A DNA stretch of 64,000 nt from Synergistales bacterium (GTDB lineage Bacteria; Synergistota; Synergistia; Synergistales; JAFGMB01). The position numbers and the translations under genes are program-made. Location of the stretch: contig OY762654.1 of NCBI GenBank assembly GCA_963666205.1, forward strand, positions 1,440,001 through 1,504,000. Direction: 5' to 3'. The stretch's first letter is position 1. Each line of letters opens with the position of its first letter. The notes beneath the pieces are model-generated. The model did not search any database, was not told the origin of the DNA, and worked only from the letters and a program-made list of their open reading frames with translations. This document shows positions 28,390-41,786 of the stretch, one piece after another.

Positions 28390-29256
28390 CTATTTCACTG
28401 CTATGTCCCTGAGAATAGCCTCACGGGAGATCCTGCCCTCTTCAGCCATCACTTCAAACTTTTCGGGAGAAGAGTTTTTGAAATTCTGCAGTATTTCTAT
28501 CAATCTGTCAAGGAGAACTTCCATATTTTCATGATTTGTAGCCCACATATCAGCTGCAAGCCAGGCCGGACCTGAAGCCACCCTGGATGTATCCCTGAAA
28601 CCCCCTCCTACCATTCTGGGCAGGTTGGGAAAACTTTTTTTCTGTTCATCCGCCAGTAATGCAAGGGATGAAGCAAGTATGGTGGGGATATGGCTCACAC
28701 AGGCAAGGATCCTGTCATGTTCGACGGGATCCAGATAGACCGCATTTGAACCTATGGAGGACACTATTTCCGCAGCCAGTTCCATTGCCCGGGGATCGGT
28801 CAGACCATGGGGAACAATAGCACAGTCAGCCTTCCTGAACAGGTCGGGAGATGCATTTTCGATCCCGCTGTACTCCTTTCCTGCCATTGGATGGAGTCCT
28901 ACATAGGCCCCTCCCCAGATCCTTGACAGGGTTTCCCCTATCTCTTTTTTAGTACTCCCCACATCCATAACGGCAGCGGGGGTCTGGGCAAAAAAAGGTT
29001 TCAACATGAGACTTACCTCCTCCATGTTACGGAGGGGGACTGCCAGGATCAGTAAATCAATGGCGTCTGCAAATTCCGCAGCAGTGTAACAGGGCTCGAA
29101 CACAAAACCCATATCAAGGGCAGTTCTCAGAGCTTCGGGGTTCCGGTTCCATCCAAAAACCTGCTTTGCCGCTCCCGATCCTCCAAGGGACGCCGCAAGG
29201 GAACCTCCTATAAGACCAAGTCCTGCTATTCCAACGTTAAGATCTGATAATGTCAT
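28390..29256 (-). CDS. tyrA: Prephenate/arogenate dehydrogenase
   Basis: GLGLIGGS, DVGSTK, HPMAGKE, HD..A.VSH, GGGFRDTSRVA. Confidence 0.93.
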   Translation of the reverse strand: MTLSDLNVGIAGLGLIGGSLAASLGGSGAAKQVFGWNRNPEALRTALDMGFVFEPCYTAAEFADAIDLLILAVPLRNMEEVSLMLKPFFAQTPAAVMDVGSTKKEIGETLSRIWGGAYVGLHPMAGKEYSGIENASPDLFRKADCAIVPHGLTDPRAMELAAEIVSSIGSNAVYLDPVEHDRILACVSHIPTILASSLALLADEQKKSFPNLPRMVGGGFRDTSRVASGPAWLAADMWATNHENMEVLLDRLIEILQNFKNSSPEKFEVMAEEGRISREAILRDIAVK

Positions 29257-29292
29257 ATTTTTCTCATCTTCTTTTCAGGGTAATTGTCGGGA

Positions 29293-29321
29293 ATCATAAA
29301 CTTGAGGGTCTATTGTGTCAA
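29293..29321 (-). promoter_or_regulatory. Sigma70 promoter of tyrA
   Basis: TTGACA-17-TATGAT. Confidence 0.7.
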
Positions 29322-29478
29322 GGCAAACTGGAGCGAGCCTGGAAAAACCTTATGAACTCCGGACAAAACCCTATTCTCTCGCGGAGAGAAGGGAAGGGAA
29401 ATGGGAAACACGGAAGAAATCGAAATGGCTGTCTACTTGGAACTTATTGCGAAAATGGCATTAACCCCAAGTCAACCT

Positions 29479-29521
29479 GAAGATACAGGCCGGACATTAA
29501 TTCTGTCCGGCCTGTATCTTC
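29479..29521. terminator. 18-bp perfect hairpin downstream of the glyoxylate reductase gene
   Basis: GAAGATACAGGCCGGACA-7-TGTCCGGCCTGTATCTTC. Confidence 0.55.
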
Positions 29522-29552
29522 CTGTTTTTTCAGCTAACTGTCCGGTGCTGGA

Positions 29553-30536
29553 CTATTTTTTCAGAACTTCTGGATTCAGAAGATCTGGCGGCGTCTTTCC
29601 TTCCAGCCCCGCAAGGAGGTTAGTCACTGCCTTGATGGCCATATCCTCTCTGGTCTTTGTACTTGCGCTTCCAAGGTGGGGCGTCATGGCGATGTTATCA
29701 AGCAGCAGAAGGGGGTCTTCGGCATCCATGGGCTCCTTCTCGAAAACATCCAGGCCGGCTCCGGCGATCCACTCCTCCTTCAAGGCTCTGGCAAGGGCTT
29801 TCTGATCAACGACAGGACCCCTGCTGGTATTGATGAGAATGGCTGTTTTCTTCATCATCTTCAGTTCCTTTTCTCCTATGAGACTCCTGGTCTCCGGAGA
29901 GAGGGGACAGTGAATAGATATAAAATCACAGGTTCCCAGGAGATCCTCAAAGGAAAGGAATGATATTCCCAGTTCTTTTTCCAGTTCCGGTCTCCTGTTC
30001 CTTCCTGTATAGCAAAGCTTCATATCAAAACCCTTTGCCCTCTTTGCCATTGCCTGGCCTATCCGGCCAAGGCCTATTATTCCAAGGGAGGATCCTGCCA
30101 CCTGCTGGCCCAGGAGCATTCTGGGACCCCAGTACCTCCAGCCTCCGGATCGCATGAGCCGTTCTCCTTCGCTCATCCTTCTGGCAGCCATAAGAAGAAG
30201 GCCAAAGGCCAGGTCTGCGGTCGCATCTGTGAGCACTCCAGGTGTATTGGTAACAAGGATGCCCTTCTCTGTGGCATAAGCCACATCTATATGATCGTAA
30301 CCCACGCTGTAACTGCTTATGATCCTCAGATTCCTGCCTGCATCAATTGCTTCCCGATCCATTTTTGTTGTCGCTCCAGGAATGGCTACCACTCCATCGG
30401 CAATGGAGATCTGTTCAAGAAAATACTCCCTTACAGGCGGCTCAATGTCTCTCCATATCTCAAAATTAGCCTTTGTCAGAAGCATATCGAGGCCTATATC
30501 GGGGATATTAGTCGCAATAAATACTCTTGGTAACAT
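29553..30536 (-). CDS. D-glycerate dehydrogenase / glyoxylate reductase (D-2-hydroxyacid dehydrogenase family)
   Basis: VGYDHID, GIIGLGRIG, INTSRG, GLDVFEKEP, PHLGSA. Confidence 0.92.
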   Translation of the reverse strand: MLPRVFIATNIPDIGLDMLLTKANFEIWRDIEPPVREYFLEQISIADGVVAIPGATTKMDREAIDAGRNLRIISSYSVGYDHIDVAYATEKGILVTNTPGVLTDATADLAFGLLLMAARRMSEGERLMRSGGWRYWGPRMLLGQQVAGSSLGIIGLGRIGQAMAKRAKGFDMKLCYTGRNRRPELEKELGISFLSFEDLLGTCDFISIHCPLSPETRSLIGEKELKMMKKTAILINTSRGPVVDQKALARALKEEWIAGAGLDVFEKEPMDAEDPLLLLDNIAMTPHLGSASTKTREDMAIKAVTNLLAGLEGKTPPDLLNPEVLKK

Positions 30537-30741
30537 GGAAGAGTCCCTCCAGTAACGGCATTCTGCCGGGCTGTCAGTATTATAACTTAACTTTTCGAAG
30601 TAGAGGATAAACGCAACGATTATACACTATACACGGTCAGGGTATTATCTAAATATTCCGAAAAAATATAATTGCTAAAACAATGTCAAGAGTTTACACT
30701 ATTCCCTATAATGCATCAAAACAATTTTAGGGGGGAATTTG

Positions 30742-31695
30742 ATGTTCAGGAAAGGTTTCAGCATCGCTTTTTGCGCTGCAGCGCTAGTCGGATTAATGGT
30801 TTGCTCCGCAGGAGCAGTGACATTTGTCAACATCGGAACGGGTAGCACGGGAGGTTCGTACTATCCGCTGGGAGCTACAATGGCCAAGATCTGGAACGAC
30901 CACATCGACGGGATCAAAGCCAGCGCACAGTCCACGGGGGGAACTGTGAACAATATCGAACTTATGGGAAGTAAAGAGGCTGATGCCGCATTCATGGACG
31001 GTCTCTATTATTATGCTTACCTGGGCAGAGGAAAGTACGAAAACAATCCTCAGAAATTCATAAGGGCAATGGTACCTCTCTATCCTGAACCAACCCAGCT
31101 TATGGTCGCCAAAGGCAGCGGGATCAAAACCCTCGCCGATTTCAGGGGCAAAAGAGTATCCATAGGCGCAGTCGCCAGTGGAACAGAGGTCACTGCAAAA
31201 CAGCTTTTAAAAGCAGCCGGAATAGATCCCGATAAGGATATCAAAGCCGAGAACCTGGGTGTAGGAGACACAGCCAAAGCATTCGGCGACAAACGCATTG
31301 ATGCAGCCGTCATGGTCGGATCCCTTGGCATGGCTGGAGTGGTAGAAGTAACTACTCTGGGACTGGTTGATTTTATCGATGTGCCGAAGGATGTCATGGA
31401 CAAGGTTATCAACGATACTCCCTACTGGGTTCCCTTCGATATCCCCGCGAACTACTACAAGGGACAGACGAACCCCGTAAAGACCTACGCAAGCTGGAAT
31501 ATTATAGCCATCAACGAAGCAGTGGATGCCGAACTTGTCTACAATATGACAAAATCGCTCTTTGAATGCAAGGAAGACCTCCTCGCAGTAAGGGCAAAAA
31601 TGGAAACAATGACTCAAGAGAACATCAAGTACATTCTTGTCCCCCTCCACGAGGGTGCAGAAAAATATTACAAGGAAGCAGGTGTTCTGAACTAG
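30742..31695 (+). CDS. TAXI-family TRAP solute-binding protein
   Basis: Signal peptide, GTGSTGGSYY, STGGTVNN, PLHEGAEKYY. Confidence 0.92.
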   Translation: MFRKGFSIAFCAAALVGLMVCSAGAVTFVNIGTGSTGGSYYPLGATMAKIWNDHIDGIKASAQSTGGTVNNIELMGSKEADAAFMDGLYYYAYLGRGKYENNPQKFIRAMVPLYPEPTQLMVAKGSGIKTLADFRGKRVSIGAVASGTEVTAKQLLKAAGIDPDKDIKAENLGVGDTAKAFGDKRIDAAVMVGSLGMAGVVEVTTLGLVDFIDVPKDVMDKVINDTPYWVPFDIPANYYKGQTNPVKTYASWNIIAINEAVDAELVYNMTKSLFECKEDLLAVRAKMETMTQENIKYILVPLHEGAEKYYKEAGVLN

Positions 31696-35778: not shown

Positions 35779-37467
35779 ATGAGCAAAAGAATTCTTATCG
35801 TTGGAGGAGTCGCCTGCGGAGGTAAAACCGCCGCGCGCCTTATGAGGATAGATCCCGAAGCTGAAGTGACCATGCTGGAGAAGGGGGAATATCTGAGTTA
35901 TGCAGGATGCGGCCTTCCATACTATGTGGGTGGAGTGGTCCATGAATACAAGGACCTCCTTTCCACAGCCATCGGAGTAGTGAGGGACGAGAACTATTTC
36001 CGAAAGGTCAAGAACGTTGAGGTAAAGACAAAACACATGGCCACAAAGATCGACCGGGAAAAGAAAGAGGTCACAGCCCTGGATCTTGCAAGCGGAGAAG
36101 AGAAGATCTTTCCCTACGACAAGCTGGTCCTTGCAACAGGTGCAAGTCCTGTAAAACCACCCATTCCAGGTTCAGACCTGAACAGGGTCTTCACCCTGTG
36201 GACCATGCCCGATGCACTGGGCATGAGAGCCGCCCTTGACAGCGGAAAAATAAAGAAAGCTGTGGTAGTTGGAGCAGGTCTAATAGGTATGGAAGTAGTG
36301 GAAGCCCTTCATGACAGGGGTGTGGAGGTCTCCGTTGTGGACTTCCTTCGCTCTCCTCTACCCGCCCTTGTGGATGAGGAATTTGGAAACAGGGTGAATT
36401 GTGTACTGAAGTGCAAGGGAATAAACTTCTACGGCGGCGAAAAAGTGGTTGAAATCCTTGGAGAGGAAGGTTACGTTACCGGAGTAAAGACAGATAAACG
36501 TGAGCTTGAGGCAGATATGATCCTTATGGCTATCGGTGTAAGGCCCAATACCATCCTCGCAAAGGAAGCCGGGCTCGAGATGGGTGATTTCGGTGCCATA
36601 GCTGTGGATTCCCACATGCGCACCAGCGATCCCGATATATACTCCGGAGGAGACTGTGCCATAGGACGACACATCGTTACCGGTAAGCCCTGCTGGCAGC
36701 CCATGGGCTCCACGGCCAACCGCCAGGGAAGGGTCATAGCCGACAATATCGCAGGCAAGGGGACATGCTTCAAAGGTGTCCAGAGTACGGCCATAATGAA
36801 ACTCTTCGAGTACACGGTAGGAAAGACAGGGCTTACGGAAGAGCAGGCCCGTGATAACGGTTTCGATGCCGTTTCCATGACTATCGTTGACCCCGACAAG
36901 CCTCACTTCATGCCCCAGGGCGGAGTGGTCATGATAAAACTGGTGGCGGACAGGTGGTCCAGAAAAGTGCTGGGAGCCCAGTCCTTCGGAACAGGCAAGA
37001 TAGACAAGCGTCTGGATGTCCTGGTAGCTGCTGTTAACGGCGGACTGACCATAGACGACCTGGCAGACCTGGATATAGCTTACGCTCCGCCCTTCACTAC
37101 TGCTCTCGATCCGGTAACCCATGCAGCCAATTCCCTGAAGAACAAGATGGACGGCCTGGTTAAGACCTATTCCGCCTCCGAGCTCAAAAAGAAGATGGAC
37201 GATGGAGATAACCCCGTTCTGGTGGACCTCAGGACCCAGCCGGAGATAGAATCACAGGGACAGCTTCCCTACGAACAGGTGGTCCATATCCCCCTGGGAC
37301 AGTTCTGGGAAAAGGCTCCGGAACTACCGAAAGACAGGGAGATAATAACCTATTGCAAGGTCTCCATAAGGGGATGGGACGCTTATACCATTCTCAACAG
37401 GCTCGGATTCAAAAAGATCGCTTTACTCGAAGGCGGAATTCTCGGCTGGCCTTTTGAAAAGAAATAG
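35779..37467 (+). CDS. CoA-disulfide/persulfide reductase with C-terminal rhodanese domain
   Basis: GGVACG, SYAGC active site, GAGLIG, AYAPPF, rhodanese YCKVSIRG. Confidence 0.92.
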   Translation: MSKRILIVGGVACGGKTAARLMRIDPEAEVTMLEKGEYLSYAGCGLPYYVGGVVHEYKDLLSTAIGVVRDENYFRKVKNVEVKTKHMATKIDREKKEVTALDLASGEEKIFPYDKLVLATGASPVKPPIPGSDLNRVFTLWTMPDALGMRAALDSGKIKKAVVVGAGLIGMEVVEALHDRGVEVSVVDFLRSPLPALVDEEFGNRVNCVLKCKGINFYGGEKVVEILGEEGYVTGVKTDKRELEADMILMAIGVRPNTILAKEAGLEMGDFGAIAVDSHMRTSDPDIYSGGDCAIGRHIVTGKPCWQPMGSTANRQGRVIADNIAGKGTCFKGVQSTAIMKLFEYTVGKTGLTEEQARDNGFDAVSMTIVDPDKPHFMPQGGVVMIKLVADRWSRKVLGAQSFGTGKIDKRLDVLVAAVNGGLTIDDLADLDIAYAPPFTTALDPVTHAANSLKNKMDGLVKTYSASELKKKMDDGDNPVLVDLRTQPEIESQGQLPYEQVVHIPLGQFWEKAPELPKDREIITYCKVSIRGWDAYTILNRLGFKKIALLEGGILGWPFEKK

Positions 37468-37477
37468 TTAACTTATT

Positions 37478-37527
37478 GAAATAAAAAAGGGGCTCTTCCA
37501 GAGTTGGAAAAGCCCCTTTTTTATTTC
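37478..37527. terminator. Bidirectional terminator
   Basis: AAAAAAGGGGCT..AGCCCCTTTTTT. Confidence 0.85.
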
Positions 37528-37556
37528 GAGGAATTCTTTCTATACCAGATTAAAGG

Positions 37557-37941
37557 ATGGTAAAATCATTACGAATTACCAGGAGCTGGATAAAAACTGA
37601 AATGTCTATCCTGCCCGGAGGATCCAGAAAACAGAAAATTCCGAAGGACCAAAAAAAATCTTTTTCCACCATTTGCTGTTGCAGCTTCGTATTTCTAAAA
37701 GGACAGGGCCAATACGTTGAGACAGAAGCCGGAACATGATTCACACTATATACCAGATAATGCCGGTATGGGTTACACATTAATGGCCAATCTTTTTCCA
37801 GGAGAAATCTTTGGGAAGATAGCCATGCTGGAGGGCGCTATACCGGGCTGCCCTTCGAAAAGAAATCCTTCCGATATACAGAGGGTTTCAAATGTTGCAT
37901 GCCATCTCTGCATATTGTATAATCCGGTCGATTGCAGTTAA
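37557..37941 (+). pseudogene. Possible degraded cNMP-binding (Crp/Fnr-like) gene fragments
   Basis: Short broken ORFs; LFPGEIFGKIAMLEG resembles the PGD.FGE.AL motif. Confidence 0.3.
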
Positions 37942-37983
37942 TATCTGATGAAACAATTTTTCTTGACTAGGAGGGAATTTCTT

Positions 37984-38151
37984 ATGGCAGCAAAGATCGA
38001 CAAAGATACATGCGTAGGTTGCGAAACCTGTGTTGGAACCTGTCCTGTAGAGGCTATTTCCATGGTTGATGGCAAAGCTGAGGTTAACGACAGCTGCGTC
38101 GAATGCGGCGCCTGTGTTTCCGTTTGCCCCGTAGAGGCTATTTCTGTATAG
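37984..38151 (+). CDS. 2[4Fe-4S] ferredoxin
   Basis: Two CxxCxxCxxxCP motifs in 55 aa; GGAGG RBS. Confidence 0.95.
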   Translation: MAAKIDKDTCVGCETCVGTCPVEAISMVDGKAEVNDSCVECGACVSVCPVEAISV

Positions 38152-38173
38152 CATAGGCTCTAAGCAAGTTAGA

Positions 38174-38216
38174 TATAAGAAAAGGACTGCCCCCAAAGGC
38201 AGTCCTTTTCTTATAT
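38174..38216. terminator. Bidirectional terminator after ferredoxin
   Basis: TATAAGAAAAGGACTGCC..GGCAGTCCTTTTCTTATA. Confidence 0.85.
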
Positions 38217-38234
38217 AGAGGTCAGAAAGAGATT

Positions 38235-38498
38235 AAAAAGGGAATCCCTAAAGGGGGGCGGGATTCCCTTGGATTCGAGGTCGGAAAAGGTTGAATTATC
38301 CTTTTTATGGAACCTGCCAGAAGATATTTTTAAAAGACTTTTGCGTGCCCGGAGGTGGGGGTATCTACTCCGGAAAAGTTTTATAAAAATAGCCCTGTAA
38401 AACAAGGTCCATTCTATTAGAGGGGGGGAACCACAGTAATAGAAAATAGCAACATTTTCTCGACACTCTAGCCTGAACAAGCAGGCAAAACGAATAAT
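38235..38498 (-). ncRNA. Candidate structured sRNA A (~265 nt)
   Basis: Own promoter TTGACA-17-TAAAAT (38533-38505) and own terminator (38270-38235); no RBS-led ORF; C-rich loops. Confidence 0.6.
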
Positions 38499-38603
38499 GT
38501 AGGGATTTTATACGTGGATGTGTATTTTGTCAAGTTTAGCTTTTGCATATTTATTAGTTTATTTTGATACTACCAGACTTATCGTTTTATACCGTGGAAC
38601 AGT

Positions 38604-38902
38604 AAAAAAGGCCCAGCCTATGAACTGGGCCTTTTCTGATAAGAAGTAGAGGTATGATCGCGATAATGGCGTTATCGGCAAAATTAACGGGTCAAGGAGA
38701 GAGGTTATTACCCTTTTTTTAACAAAGGTAAAGGGGGAATTTGCGTGCTCCAGGAGGCAGATCCGGATAACCTTCGGGGAAAAGGGCCGAATCCTTGGCG
38801 GTAATAACCTCTTGAAATAAACCTTGAAACCCAAATAACGTAAGGGGGAACCAAACGTTCAAAGAGTATGCTTCATATATTTTCAAAGCTCGTTCTTTGT
38901 TG
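38604..38902 (-). ncRNA. Candidate structured sRNA B (~300 nt)
   Basis: Own promoter TTGACA-17-TAAAGT (38937-38909) and terminator (38635-38604); 12-bp long-range stem; motifs shared with A. Confidence 0.6.
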
Positions 38903-39227
38903 GCGTATACTTTATACTGCATATATAATTTTGTCAACCGTATTTTTGGCTTTTTTGTAAAGATAAAGTAAAATTAGGGTTTTAAAGAATAGTTAATGTA
39001 TGCTGAATAAACCCCTAAATTGAACACTCCGTTACGAAATTAACGCCTTTTAAAATGAAGATCTCCAGCCTTTGAAATGAAAGCAATAACCGGAAACTAC
39101 CTTTGACGGGTATACAACGAGAAATCGGGGATATTGTCAAAAACCTGAAACTTCAGGTACTTCACGGAGGGGAAGGCTTCGACAATATCCCCGGAGATAG
39201 GGGGTAAAGAACTCTTTTCTCCCTTCC

Positions 39228-39335
39228 CTATCGAAGACAGGGAAGATATGGGGGGGTATTGGGGAAAGAAAGTTCCCTTGCTCCTGTTTCTTTCTTTTTT
39301 CCTGCCTTCTGTTTTTCATCTTTGATCTGTGCCAT
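39228..39335 (-). CDS. Small ORF, 35 aa (MAQIKDEKQKAGKKKETGARELSFPNTPPYLPCLR)
   Basis: GGGAGGT RBS upstream of ATG; may be a truncated gene. Confidence 0.4.
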   Translation of the reverse strand: MAQIKDEKQKAGKKKETGARELSFPNTPPYLPCLR

Positions 39336-39375
39336 TTCTATAGACCTCCCTGATATTTTTCGTTTATATCTGCTT

Positions 39376-39543
39376 TCAGTACTTCCACCATCGGGGAATG
39401 GAAATACTCTTTACCTCTTCCTTTCTTTGAAAGGGTCCAGGCTTGTTCTCGGGAAGAAAGGGCGAATATCTGAACCCCGAAAGAGGTGTATCCATCACCT
39501 GCTCCTCCGGTATGCTTCGCCAGAAAAGGCTTTCTTCATCCAT
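39376..39543 (-). pseudogene. 55-aa ORF after the orphan attenuator, possibly a TrpE N-terminal relic
   Basis: AGGAGTGAGG RBS; DTPLSGF-RYSPFLPENKPG weakly resembles TrpE DTPLS...YSFLLES..G. Confidence 0.35.
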
Positions 39544-39571
39544 ATCCCTCACTCCTTTCCTCAAAGACCAT

Positions 39572-39610
39572 AAAAAAAACCGGGCTCCCTTAAAGTTCGG
39601 GAACCCGGCC
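39572..39610 (-). terminator. Attenuator terminator (orphan)
   Basis: GCCGGGTTCCC-loop-GGGAGCCCGG followed by T8. Confidence 0.88.
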
Positions 39611-39633
39611 TGAGATCTACTGGTCAACGCCTG

Positions 39634-39720
39634 TCAGACGCCGACCACCTCAGGTGAGTCCCCGCCGCTAAACCAGTAATAAAAGTAATAGCTGTTACTG
39701 TAAGAACTATTCTTTTTCAC
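39634..39720 (-). CDS. Aromatic leader peptide, 28 aa (MKKNSSYSNSYYFYYWFSGGDSPEVVGV)
   Basis: GAGGTG RBS, GTG start, seven consecutive aromatic codons YYFYYWF. Confidence 0.85.
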   Translation of the reverse strand: MKKNSSYSNSYYFYYWFSGGDSPEVVGV

Positions 39721-39775
39721 AGAGACACACCTCGCCTTCATCAATTCGTTTAAATTTTCAGAATTATTGCCGAAT

Positions 39776-39804
39776 ACTTTATACCCCTTATCCCCATTTG
39801 TCAA
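39776..39804 (-). promoter_or_regulatory. Sigma70 promoter of the orphan leader
   Basis: TTGACA-17-TAAAGT. Confidence 0.7.
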
Positions 39805-39975
39805 TACGCAACCTGAGAAAAAAAGAAAGAATATTTTCTCAGGTTGACAACCATACAATTCAAAAATTTCCCTGGGTGTTTTGAAATGGATTATACTAAA
39901 GAAAGTCAGGCAAAATTCCTGTAAAACAGATTATCAGCTAATTGTCCTGGGCATATGGACGGGGGGCATTAAACT

Positions 39976-40716
39976 TTGAAAAAACCAGAAGATTTCAGAA
40001 TCCTTCCAGCAGGAGAATCCTGCATCTTTGTAGATTTCGGATCCATGGTAAACCTTGAGATCAACGGCAGGGTCCAGGCATTAAAGAAAAAGGTTGAAAC
40101 AGAACAGCTTACCGGGATAAGGGAAGTTGTTCCAACCTACCGTTCACTGGCCATATATTTCGATCCTGTATTGCTGGACCTGGAAAGATTCATAAAAAGG
40201 CTCAAAGATATAATTCCCGGTACTGCATCCCTCCAGAATGAAACAGCAAGAACGGTGGTCATTCCCGTATGTTATGGCGGGGAATTCGGCCCGGACCTGG
40301 AAAGAGTGGCATCCCTCAAGGGACTGACCTGTGAGGAGGTTATTCGGAGGCACTCTTCAAGGGACTACTACTGCTACATGTTGGGATTTACCCCGGGTTT
40401 TCCATATCTTGGAGGAATGGATGAATCCATATCCGCACCGCGTCTGGAAAGCCCCAGGGAGGTAATACCAGCCGGCAGCGTCGGCATCGCAGGCACACAG
40501 ACCGGCATCTACCCCATAAGCAGCCCAGGGGGCTGGCAGCTTATCGGCCGGACACCCCTGACGCTCTTTGATCCACACAGAGAACCTCCCATACTCCTCG
40601 AATCGGGTATCTGGATCCGCTTTCGTCCTGTTTCAGAGGAAACATACCGAAAGATCTCGGAAAAGGCCGATTCCGGTAACGGGGATATGGAGCCACTGGA
40701 AAGAGGGCGATCCTGA
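39976..40716 (+). CDS. pxpB: 5-oxoprolinase subunit B
   Basis: VPTYRSL, PVCYGGEFGPDL, GFTPGFPY, SPGGWQLIG. Confidence 0.92.
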   Translation: MKKPEDFRILPAGESCIFVDFGSMVNLEINGRVQALKKKVETEQLTGIREVVPTYRSLAIYFDPVLLDLERFIKRLKDIIPGTASLQNETARTVVIPVCYGGEFGPDLERVASLKGLTCEEVIRRHSSRDYYCYMLGFTPGFPYLGGMDESISAPRLESPREVIPAGSVGIAGTQTGIYPISSPGGWQLIGRTPLTLFDPHREPPILLESGIWIRFRPVSEETYRKISEKADSGNGDMEPLERGRS

Positions 40717-41786
40717 TGGACTTCAAAGTAGATCATCCTGGAATGTTAACCACCGTTCAGGATCTGGGCAGATGGGGTTTCCTTGGCAAGGGAATGCCCA
40801 TTGCAGGTGCCATGGATCCTGCTGCCCTGCAAATGGGCAATATCATGGTGGGTAATCCTGCAAACACTGCTGCCCTGGAGATAACCATTATGGGACCCAC
40901 CCTTACCGTAACCGCAGGAGAAGCAATGGCTGTACTTACCGGAGCTGATCTTGGCCTAACCATAAATGGCAAATTAACACCGGCCTGGAAGTGCTTAATG
41001 ATAAGATCAGGCGATAACCTTGCCTTCAGAGGATCTTCGGCGAGGGGGTCCAGGGCTTATCTGTGCCTCAGCGGAGGAATAGAAGTAGACCCGGTTATGG
41101 GGAGCCGTTCCACCTATCTCAGGGGGAAAATGGGCGGTTTCAATGGAAGACCCCTTGCAAAGGGAGATGTTATCCATACAGGAAAGCCTCATCTGCTCTG
41201 GAAAAGATTCGATGACTTTGAATGCCCTGAAGACCTTATACCGGACTATGGGCAGCAAACAAAACTGAAGGCTGTTCCAGGACCGCAGGATAATCTTTTC
41301 ACTGAGAATGGGCTGAAAACCTTTTTCTCCTCTGAATATACCATCACAACTTCGGCTGACAGAATGGGTTACCGCCTGGAAGGACCCGTAATAGAACATC
41401 TTGGAGGTCCCGACATAATCTCAGATGCAATTCCTCCGGGATCGGTCCAGGTTCCCGGAAACTGCCAGCCCATAGTGATGCTTGCTGACGGGCAGACAAC
41501 CGGAGGATATGCCAAGATCGCCGTCCTGACGACCCTGGCCCGCTGCATGCTGGCACAACGTCTTCCGGGACAGACAGTATTCTTCGAAAGGACGGATCAG
41601 GATTCAGCCATCCTGGAAGCACGGCAGTTTGCAGAGAAGATCAGCAGACTGGCAATAGCAAGGGCAGCATTTTCGACAGGTCATACCATATTTCACCCGG
41701 AAGAAAGAGAATCGGCTTCGGGTTCCATGAAGATGAAAATCAATGACAGGATATGGAAAGTCGACTGGGAACTTCTTGATAAATAG
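40716..41786 (+). CDS. pxpC: 5-oxoprolinase subunit C
   Basis: TTVQDLGR, GAMD, DRMGYRL, QTTGGYAKI. Confidence 0.9.
   Translation: MDFKVDHPGMLTTVQDLGRWGFLGKGMPIAGAMDPAALQMGNIMVGNPANTAALEITIMGPTLTVTAGEAMAVLTGADLGLTINGKLTPAWKCLMIRSGDNLAFRGSSARGSRAYLCLSGGIEVDPVMGSRSTYLRGKMGGFNGRPLAKGDVIHTGKPHLLWKRFDDFECPEDLIPDYGQQTKLKAVPGPQDNLFTENGLKTFFSSEYTITTSADRMGYRLEGPVIEHLGGPDIISDAIPPGSVQVPGNCQPIVMLADGQTTGGYAKIAVLTTLARCMLAQRLPGQTVFFERTDQDSAILEARQFAEKISRLAIARAAFSTGHTIFHPEERESASGSMKMKINDRIWKVDWELLDK

Follow-up and report, generated by a model that had tools for sequence, protein, structure and literature searches.

An aromatic leader-peptide attenuator in a Synergistales genome that may gate two conserved small genes in place of a lost symporter operon

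Attenuators built on leader peptides are textbook gates of amino-acid supply operons. In pheL-pheA, pheM-pheST and trpL-trpEDCBA, a short open reading frame (ORF) that contains codons for the sensed amino acid is combined with two hairpins that exclude each other, an antiterminator and a terminator, and with a U-tract, and the position of the ribosome decides whether transcription terminates. The tnaC-tnaAB operon of Escherichia coli is governed by TnaC, a leader peptide that senses free tryptophan and acts through Rho. Here we describe an attenuator on the minus strand of a 64,000-nucleotide (nt) stretch of the genome of a Synergistales bacterium (assembly GCA_963666205.1, contig OY762654.1, positions 1,440,001 to 1,504,000; hereafter the window), which is followed by two small genes, ORF55 and ORF35. 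We estimate at roughly 0.6 the probability that this element is a working ribosome-mediated transcription attenuator that reads the charge of aromatic transfer RNAs, that has lost its symporter cargo, and that now gates the two small genes, both of which are under selection. What is new is an aromatic attenuator of the known ribosome-mediated type that probably gates two conserved small genes instead of a supply operon.

The Synergistales element shares with the enterobacterial attenuators the short ORF with a run of sensed codons, the mutually exclusive hairpins and the U-tract. It differs from them in that the antiterminator is blocked by the leader's own Shine-Dalgarno/start region and not by the regulatory codons, in that the stop codon lies in the antiterminator loop, and in that the run mixes Tyr, Phe and Trp. 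The cargo also differs, being non-biosynthetic (a symporter and a dehydrogenase in relatives, two small ORFs here), and the element has no relation to an Rfam leader family; a cmscan search of positions 37000-41000 with the Rfam covariance models, on both strands and with E up to 10, gave no match on 39560-39810. No paper on aromatic attenuators of the leader type in Synergistetes, or on such attenuators before transporters of the symporter kind, emerged from a literature search, and PMC9413887 treats histidine. In Sinorhizobium meliloti the attenuator rnTrpL/peTrpL controls trpE(G), and both the RNA and the leader peptide are reported, on experimental evidence, to act in trans (PMC6614838, PMC7298713). 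The Synergistales element resembles rnTrpL/peTrpL in that its products may have effects other than cis control of the gene that follows, but differs in that the extra products here are separate downstream ORFs.

The source genome (G000) is a single complete contig of 2.95 Mb. Together with its congener G001 (genus g1), G002 and G004 (genus g2) and G003 (genus g3), it makes up a family of five genomes in three genera, and homologue searches were extended to 261 genomes of the order. The initial annotation had described an intact promoter, a leader with the run YYFYYWF, a paired antiterminator and a terminator, and all of these were located on the minus strand, as were the other features it named. 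The promoter, of the sigma-70 type, occupies 39804-39776 and consists of TTGACA (39804-39799), a 17-nt spacer and TAAAGT (39781-39776), with 10 of 12 consensus matches; across the five family genomes the -35 hexamer is invariant and the -10 hexamer nearly so. The leader ORF extends over 28 codons from GTG 39720 to TGA 39636-39634, and its Shine-Dalgarno site, GAGGTG (39733-39728), lies 7 nt upstream of the start. Start codon and site are both invariant in the family. The leader was annotated initially as a 35-residue peptide; its aromatic run was correctly read, but the start assigned to it, ATG 39741, is not conserved in relatives, and the conserved GTG 39720 gives a peptide of 28 residues.

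The aromatic run comprises seven consecutive codons at 39690-39670 (four Tyr, two Phe and one Trp). Substitutions within it among relatives are synonymous or exchange Tyr and Phe, and the encoded residues remain aromatic. When all six frames of the 2.95-Mb genome were scanned, aromatic-codon runs of length 7 were found once, those of length 6 17 times and those of length 5 99 times; one of the 17 is the leader that precedes the shikimate operon within the same window. Reading of the intergenic regions 29240-29570 and 30520-30760 revealed no further aromatic leader. Within the leader studied here, a stretch of 26 nt that forms the 5' arm of the antiterminator hairpin is identical in the five genomes, and so in three genera, wobble positions included. 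The 20-mer that was searched within this stretch is also identical in G063, a genome of another family.

The antiterminator hairpin occupies 39664-39598 (67 nt, -42.7 kcal/mol), combines the three pairings quoted in the initial annotation, and carries the stop codon of the leader in the loop at its apex. The 3' base of this hairpin doubles as the 5' arm of an intrinsic terminator at 39608-39572 (-20.5 kcal/mol), which is composed of a stem at 39608-39580, with 10 G+C-rich base pairs (bp) and a 9-nt loop, and eight T residues at 39579-39572. The 5' base of the long hairpin (39664-39652) can alternatively pair with the Shine-Dalgarno/start region (39732-39718). The fold of the 226-nt leader had a z score of -4.18, and none of 200 shuffled sequences folded as well. 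RNAalifold, applied to the five family sequences, predicted the terminated state, in which the Shine-Dalgarno/start region is paired with the 5' base of the long hairpin and both the central hairpin and the terminator are formed. When the segment that starts where the run ends and reaches the terminator loop was folded by itself, the outcome was the opposite, with the 5' base capturing 8 of the 10 nt of the terminator 5' arm (-42.7 versus -20.5 kcal/mol). The features of a ribosome-mediated attenuator are thus found together: a translatable ORF with a codon run, a terminator with a competing hairpin, and a stop codon in the antiterminator loop. Genes that supply the sensed amino acid do not follow here; only ORF55 and ORF35 do.

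This anatomy suggests how the switch would operate. A ribosome that translates the 28-codon leader without delay would arrive at the stop codon, in the long hairpin's loop, and melt the 5' arm of that hairpin; the terminator would then form and transcription would end at 39572. If the leader were not translated, the Shine-Dalgarno/start region would pair with the same 5' arm and the terminator would form as well. A ribosome stalled in the aromatic run, by contrast, would leave the 5' arm free to capture the 5' half of the terminator, and RNA polymerase would read through. In relatives the genes under its control would be those of a symporter and an Ldh_2 dehydrogenase, which presumably take up and convert an aromatic amino acid or an aromatic 2-hydroxy/2-oxo acid. 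In the source lineage, where the symporter pair has been lost, selection appears to have kept a two-gene unit that encodes proteins of 55 and 35 residues and ends in a structured 3' hairpin, and aromatic starvation would most likely switch on these two family-specific small proteins, which would act in trans.

Comparison with other leaders was consistent with both states of the switch. In 18 of 18 leaders from six families (eight from this family and ten before symporter genes elsewhere, a comparison that had no shuffle control), the fold of the stalled segment captured 6-10 of the 10-14 terminator-arm nucleotides, with antiterminators of -29 to -43 kcal/mol. The leader stop lies in the apical loop of the antiterminator in all 18; the stop codon itself differs among them, and the helix sequences differ between families. 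For the terminated state, an alignment of 10 sequences had 84.7% of cells paired, compared with at most 50% when the partners were slid, a control that favours both this structure and the antiterminator, each having been derived from the sequence of the source genome. Compensatory changes were found in 11 pairs of the terminated state, a number reached by 3 of 500 shuffles. Within the same alignment the helix between the Shine-Dalgarno region and the arm was 95% paired, and the terminator was paired in 100% of cells, with compensatory changes in 3 pairs.

Downstream of the terminator the initial annotation had noted only ORFs of 55 and 35 codons and structured non-coding DNA, and this is what was found: ORF55 and ORF35, both of which have strong Shine-Dalgarno sites, are followed by a structured stretch that extends to the ferredoxin gene. 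ORF55 runs from ATG 39543 to TGA 39376 (39560-39376 with its Shine-Dalgarno site) and encodes a family-specific small protein. ORF35 runs from ATG 39335 to TAG 39228, with a Shine-Dalgarno site at 39350-39345, and encodes a lysine-rich micropeptide that ends in a conserved motif of about 10 residues. Both ORFs are present in all five family genomes. A profile of ORF55 detected its homologues in 5 of 5 family genomes (E < 1e-28); in the remaining 256 genomes of the order it gave no credible match. Against collections of 5.8 billion and 1.84 billion proteins the profile recovered 5-6 clusters, all from its own family; its matches to a 238-residue repetitive protein and to a 5162-residue protein were taken as spurious. 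Neither the leader nor either small ORF belongs to a family in Pfam or NCBIfam.

Both small ORFs carry the marks of selected coding sequences. ORF55 is conserved along its whole length and has exactly 55 codons in 8 of 8 homologues. The ratio of nonsynonymous to synonymous substitution rates (dN/dS) was 0.06-0.14 for close, unsaturated pairs of ORF55 and 0.06-0.25 for ORF35 within genus g3. Differences in the small ORFs are concentrated at third codon positions (for example 6/9/23 and 2/5/16 over the three positions), and purine-rich, Shine-Dalgarno-like sites precede 5 of 5 copies of ORF55 and 7 of 7 copies of ORF35 that were viewed. The C-terminal motif of ORF35, which contains Cys and Trp, is kept in 10 of 10 copies, and its lysine-rich N-terminal part varies in sequence and in length. 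Two loose matches elsewhere in the genome to the two C-terminal motifs lay inside other genes, lacked a start and a Shine-Dalgarno site, and were set down to chance. Judged by these patterns, ORF55 and ORF35 are genes under purifying selection and not debris; the possibility, raised with the initial annotation, that they would prove to be unconserved fragments was not borne out.

The cargo that such a leader controls elsewhere was identified from its relatives. The 20/21-mer of the leader 5' arm was found, as an exact match, in four other species genomes and nine metagenome contigs, and the loci are of three types. At loci L040 and L043, which are identical to G063 and whose leader is nearly the same as that of the source genome, the leader lies directly before a sodium:solute symporter gene (PF00474) and an Ldh_2 dehydrogenase gene (PF02615). 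In genus g2 (G002 and G004) ORF55 and two micropeptide ORFs follow the leader, a terminator comes next, and the symporter and Ldh_2 genes lie beyond it; pxpB/pxpC are found upstream, as they are in the window. In the third type, represented by the source genome, G001, G003 and three further distinct metagenome sequences, the leader is followed by ORF55 and one micropeptide ORF, and no symporter gene is present.

Of the 261 genomes of the order, 55 have a symporter orthologue, and in the loci that were inspected the Ldh_2 gene comes after it. At 12 of 27 inspected loci (families f3, f4, f5, f7 and f10) the symporter is preceded by an aromatic-run leader together with its hairpin and terminator. 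The other 15 loci, scanned to 1500 nt upstream, had no aromatic leader and must therefore be regulated otherwise. In all, leaders of this build stand before the symporter and Ldh_2 genes in six families. Because aromatic leaders precede the symporter at those 12 loci, the cognate cargo of leaders of this design appears to be the symporter, usually together with the Ldh_2 gene, which suggests that the substrates of the pair are aromatic amino acids or aromatic 2-hydroxy/2-oxo acids. The pair also occurs without an aromatic leader in several families (genera g7, g19 and g4), and in G063 it is followed by a gene for a 210-residue protein with a weak nucleotidyltransferase match (L040:3416-4048).

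No symporter orthologue was found in the complete source genome, in which the best tblastn match had 28-37% identity, and a search of G000, G001 and G003 returned no match to the symporter at E <= 1e-60. The source genome holds one Ldh_2 paralogue of about 50% identity, located about 108 kb before the start of the window. Remnants of the symporter or dehydrogenase genes were sought in 38150-39300, and the matches were noise only (best E 0.37). The interval between the ferredoxin gene and pxpB, where the initial annotation had proposed that synteny be compared, has both flanks syntenic with g2, with pxpB upstream and a C-rich small RNA downstream. The symporter and Ldh_2 genes of g2 occupy the site that corresponds to 38964-39126, which is a hot spot of indels: G001 lacks 129 nt of it (38964-39092), and in related strains seen in RNA libraries 163 nt of 38964-39126 are replaced by 32 nt. 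Misassembly was ruled out, since the source genome is one complete contig, G001 is collinear with the locus at 89-93% identity, and 0.93-0.99 of the words sampled from the locus recur in independent DNA runs.

These results agree in part with one of the readings offered initially, that of an orphan attenuator whose operon had recently been deleted. The attenuator is indeed an orphan, the pair being absent from G000, G001 and G003 and present behind the leader in g2 and G063, but the lost cargo was a transporter operon, not a biosynthetic one. Nor does the loss seem to be recent. It is common to two genera whose small ORFs have reached saturation at synonymous sites, and is therefore probably old; the identity of ORF55 is 49% between g1 and g3 and 29% to g2, and the distribution fits a single loss of the symporter pair in the common ancestor of g1 and g3.

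If the operon is gone, the attenuator and the small ORFs might be no more than functionless leftovers. The missing pair and the indel hot spot at its site are what simple decay would leave behind, but the promoter, Shine-Dalgarno sites, leader, hairpins and ORFs are intact in 7 of 7 distinct loci without a symporter. In addition, the small ORFs are not similar to the lost genes and coexist with them in g2, and the dN/dS values of 0.06-0.25 were obtained among lineages that all lack the symporter. The g3 lineages that were compared are all without it, and selection therefore acted on the small ORFs without the symporter. We regard decay as the least probable of the explanations considered here. 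The proposal that aromatic starvation switches on micropeptides thus emerged as the best supported of those offered initially, both ORFs being conserved and, by their substitution patterns, under purifying selection.

The composition of ORF35 raised a different possibility, that it is the precursor of a modified or secreted peptide, either a ribosomally synthesized and post-translationally modified peptide (RiPP) or a pheromone, which would be made under aromatic limitation with ORF55 as a helper. ORF35 is short, has a conserved C-terminal motif with Cys and Trp behind a variable N-terminal part, and is duplicated in g2. Most RiPPs, however, conserve the leader and vary the core, which is the reverse of what is seen in ORF35; its N-terminal part is highly charged and a signal peptide is absent. 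A modifying enzyme, exporter or receptor gene is not kept adjacent either, and the neighbourhoods, which differ between genera (pxpB and the ferredoxin gene here, other genes in G003 and in G002), have no maturation, export or receptor gene in common. A precursor of this kind is very unlikely.

The 3' end of the unit (39232-39114; z score -3.92) consists of two hairpins and a U-rich tail; the first hairpin (39232-39196) spans the stop of ORF35, and the second, a long one, occupies 39193-39126. The long hairpin exposes an unpaired CCUCC, which was unpaired or mostly unpaired in 5 of the 6 relatives that were folded, and the hairpin could be a 3'-end-derived anti-Shine-Dalgarno RNA. The CCUCC hairpin is kept at the same place in G001, L011, L038 and L042. 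Two C-rich small RNAs are encoded just downstream (38937-38180), and the CCUCC stretch is similar to them. Metatranscriptome contigs from two studies cover 39127-39629 (the terminator and both ORFs), 39278-39537, 39309-39528 and 39569-39748, and one contig from an RNA library ends at 39127. The occurrence of the unit in the RNA libraries of two studies is a weak hint that it is expressed.

These observations bear on whether an RNA is the main product of the locus, either as the terminated leader of about 190 nt acting in trans, a reading already offered initially, or as the 3' hairpin of the readthrough transcript, with its exposed CCUCC, acting as an anti-Shine-Dalgarno RNA. The 26-nt arm is identical across three genera at a distance at which the synonymous sites of ORF55 are saturated, one contig (39569-39748) corresponds to the leader up to the T-run, the CCUCC is unpaired in most relatives as described above, and rnTrpL of Sinorhizobium is a reported precedent for action in trans (PMC6614838). 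On the other hand, coding, Shine-Dalgarno pairing and terminator-arm pairing overlap in the invariant stretch and may by themselves have frozen its sequence, contigs cannot define the ends of an RNA, and the coding signal of both ORFs would be left unexplained. We consider an RNA as the main product improbable.

The aromatic leader proved to be one of a family of related attenuators. A paralogous leader with a run of phenylalanine codons lies 11 kb away (28365-28205, minus strand) and can be aligned with it; this leader precedes an SBP_bac_3 gene (28179-27373) that adjoins tyrA and the shikimate operon. The alignment of the two leaders was used to build a covariance model (R1), which matched 11 copies in the source genome (E <= 3e-4), the aromatic element among them, and had matches in 102 of the 151 Synergistales genomes searched with it. 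The score of 166 bits for the aromatic element reflects construction, as the element and the Phe copy form the training alignment; the nine remaining copies scored 35-50 bits (E 1e-8 to 3e-4). Ten of the 11 copies were inspected, and each has a Shine-Dalgarno site, a short ORF, a stop codon in a hairpin, and a terminator. What the copies have in common is the helix between the Shine-Dalgarno region and the arm, a central hairpin whose loop contains the stop, and the terminator; the run itself is recoded, to Phe, to Ile/Val/Leu, to Leu or to Val. No description of such a re-coded scaffold in Synergistales was found in the literature searched.

Nine of the 10 inspected copies precede an ORF for at least 269 residues, which begins either no more than about 100 nt past the terminator or, after one or two small ORFs, no more than about 300 nt past it. 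Read from their first residues, the genes behind the copies look like leuC, panB, ilvN/ilvC, an aminotransferase and two membrane proteins. At C1:2316470-2316876 two copies of the scaffold, the second of which was read, stand in tandem before ORFs that resemble ilvN and ilvC. In most of the paralogous leaders the part of the conserved 5' arm that directly follows the regulatory run codes for Pro-Pro-Gly or Leu-Pro-Gly. Pro-Pro-Gly is a known ribosome-pausing motif and might serve in these leaders to time the ribosome against RNA polymerase. The aromatic copy lacks the double proline.

Small ORFs alone follow the aromatic copy and a copy with an Ile/Val/Leu run at C1:992563-992736. Behind the latter lie only a 49-codon ORF with a strong Shine-Dalgarno site (L106:826-972), a hairpin and a convergent gene, and the unit (C1:992300-992760), an attenuator and then a small ORF only, is conserved in G001, G003 and G004. 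A further copy, at C1:1188030-1188207, has a promoter, an Ile/Val/Leu leader and a terminator, and is followed by a 46-codon paralogue of the 49-codon ORF; 24 nt past the 46-codon ORF begins an enzyme-sized ORF, which is followed by a leucine-type leader (C1:1187970-1188450). This second family of small proteins has an invariant C-terminus of eight residues, is present in G001, G003 (two copies) and G004, and forms 22 clusters in the protein collection, none of them named and one labelled Aminobacterium. Small ORFs behind attenuators appear, from these arrangements, to be a habit of the group, which raises the odds that they are relevant, whether as proteins or as regulatory reading frames.

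If they are regulatory reading frames, the small ORFs would act in cis as second-tier leader or arrest peptides, in which pausing near the stop codon sets the fate of the downstream RNA; in g2 that RNA would be the second terminator and the symporter, in the source genome the 3' hairpin together with the small RNAs farther downstream. Between genera only the last 10 or so residues of ORF35 are conserved and the N-terminal part is variable, and within about 15-40 nt of the micropeptide ORFs of g2 comes a terminator, after which lies the symporter. The second small-ORF family, with its invariant C-terminus, likewise lies behind branched-chain copies and once directly before an enzyme gene, and ORF55 is rich in the residues that the switch senses. 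The tnaC-tnaAB operon, with a short peptide that has conserved residues near its stop and precedes an operon for an aromatic transporter and enzyme, offers a possible analogy for ORF35 of g2; it differs from the locus of the source genome, where no transporter follows. A downstream gene is found only in g2. Against a role in cis stands the purifying selection on the ORFs in two genera without a downstream symporter, as well as the conservation of ORF55 over its whole length and at fixed size rather than at its end only. Moreover, no pairing between the stop codon and the downstream hairpin was established; one complementarity of 6 bp, found by eye, is within chance. A cis-acting role is unlikely, although it deserves to be taken more seriously than the other alternatives discussed above.

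Taken together, these comparisons favour the reading in which the attenuator now gates two selected small genes, but several observations weigh against it. The starvation response, the readthrough and the translation of the small ORFs are predictions, and the contigs from RNA libraries reveal neither strand, ends nor level and may derive from DNA that these libraries contained. Although 83.2% paired, the antiterminator shows no covariation beyond that of shuffled alignments (182 of 500 shuffles equal it), because it barely varies within the close family, where it is nearly invariant; its support comes from the comparison between families, which, as stated, lacked a shuffle control. Aromatic residues are numerous in ORF55 (9 of 55 by eye), which is odd for a protein made under aromatic scarcity. 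An AlphaFold2 model of ORF55 from an alignment of 8 rows had a mean predicted local distance difference test score (pLDDT) of 61 and a predicted template modelling score (pTM) of 0.15, with no confident fold, and no relative of known function was found for it in Pfam, NCBIfam, the two protein collections or the ESM Atlas. For ORF35, the G000-G001 pair taken by itself gave a dN/dS of 0.55, on six differences. Finally, that the symporter pair was lost and not gained is deduced from its distribution and not from a rooted tree.

A wider reading, which we put forward tentatively and rate as somewhat less probable than not, is that attenuators of this family have been taken over to drive micro-proteins, and perhaps the anti-Shine-Dalgarno hairpin, as trans-acting starvation signals, so that the aromatic attenuator would be the sensor of a small regulatory circuit and more than the gate of a supply operon. 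In that reading the aromatic copy would drive ORF55 and ORF35, and two branched-chain copies would drive members of the second small-protein family.

The unit is flanked on its 5' side by the divergent gene pxpB (39976-40716; Pfam CT_C_D) and on its 3' side by the convergent ferredoxin gene (37948-38151). Between pxpB and the leader promoter, abutting the -35 hexamer, the sequence contains a perfect 12-bp inverted repeat (39810-39847, minus strand), which could serve as an operator or, for the divergent pxpB transcript, as a boundary hairpin. The arms of the repeat are similar to the attenuator's CCTGAG/CTCAGG helix, and a contig of pxpB from an RNA library begins at 39819.

At this locus an attenuator has outlived its operon and has been kept, together with two tiny genes, long enough for synonymous sites to saturate. 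The distribution of the leaders predicts that aromatic amino acids are supplied by the widespread symporter/Ldh_2 pair, perhaps through salvage of aromatic 2-hydroxy acids. If the small proteins are indeed made upon aromatic starvation, they would provide a handle on the starvation response of amino-acid-fermenting anaerobes, and the locus would be a naturally occurring example of an attenuator that serves as a general-purpose sensor.

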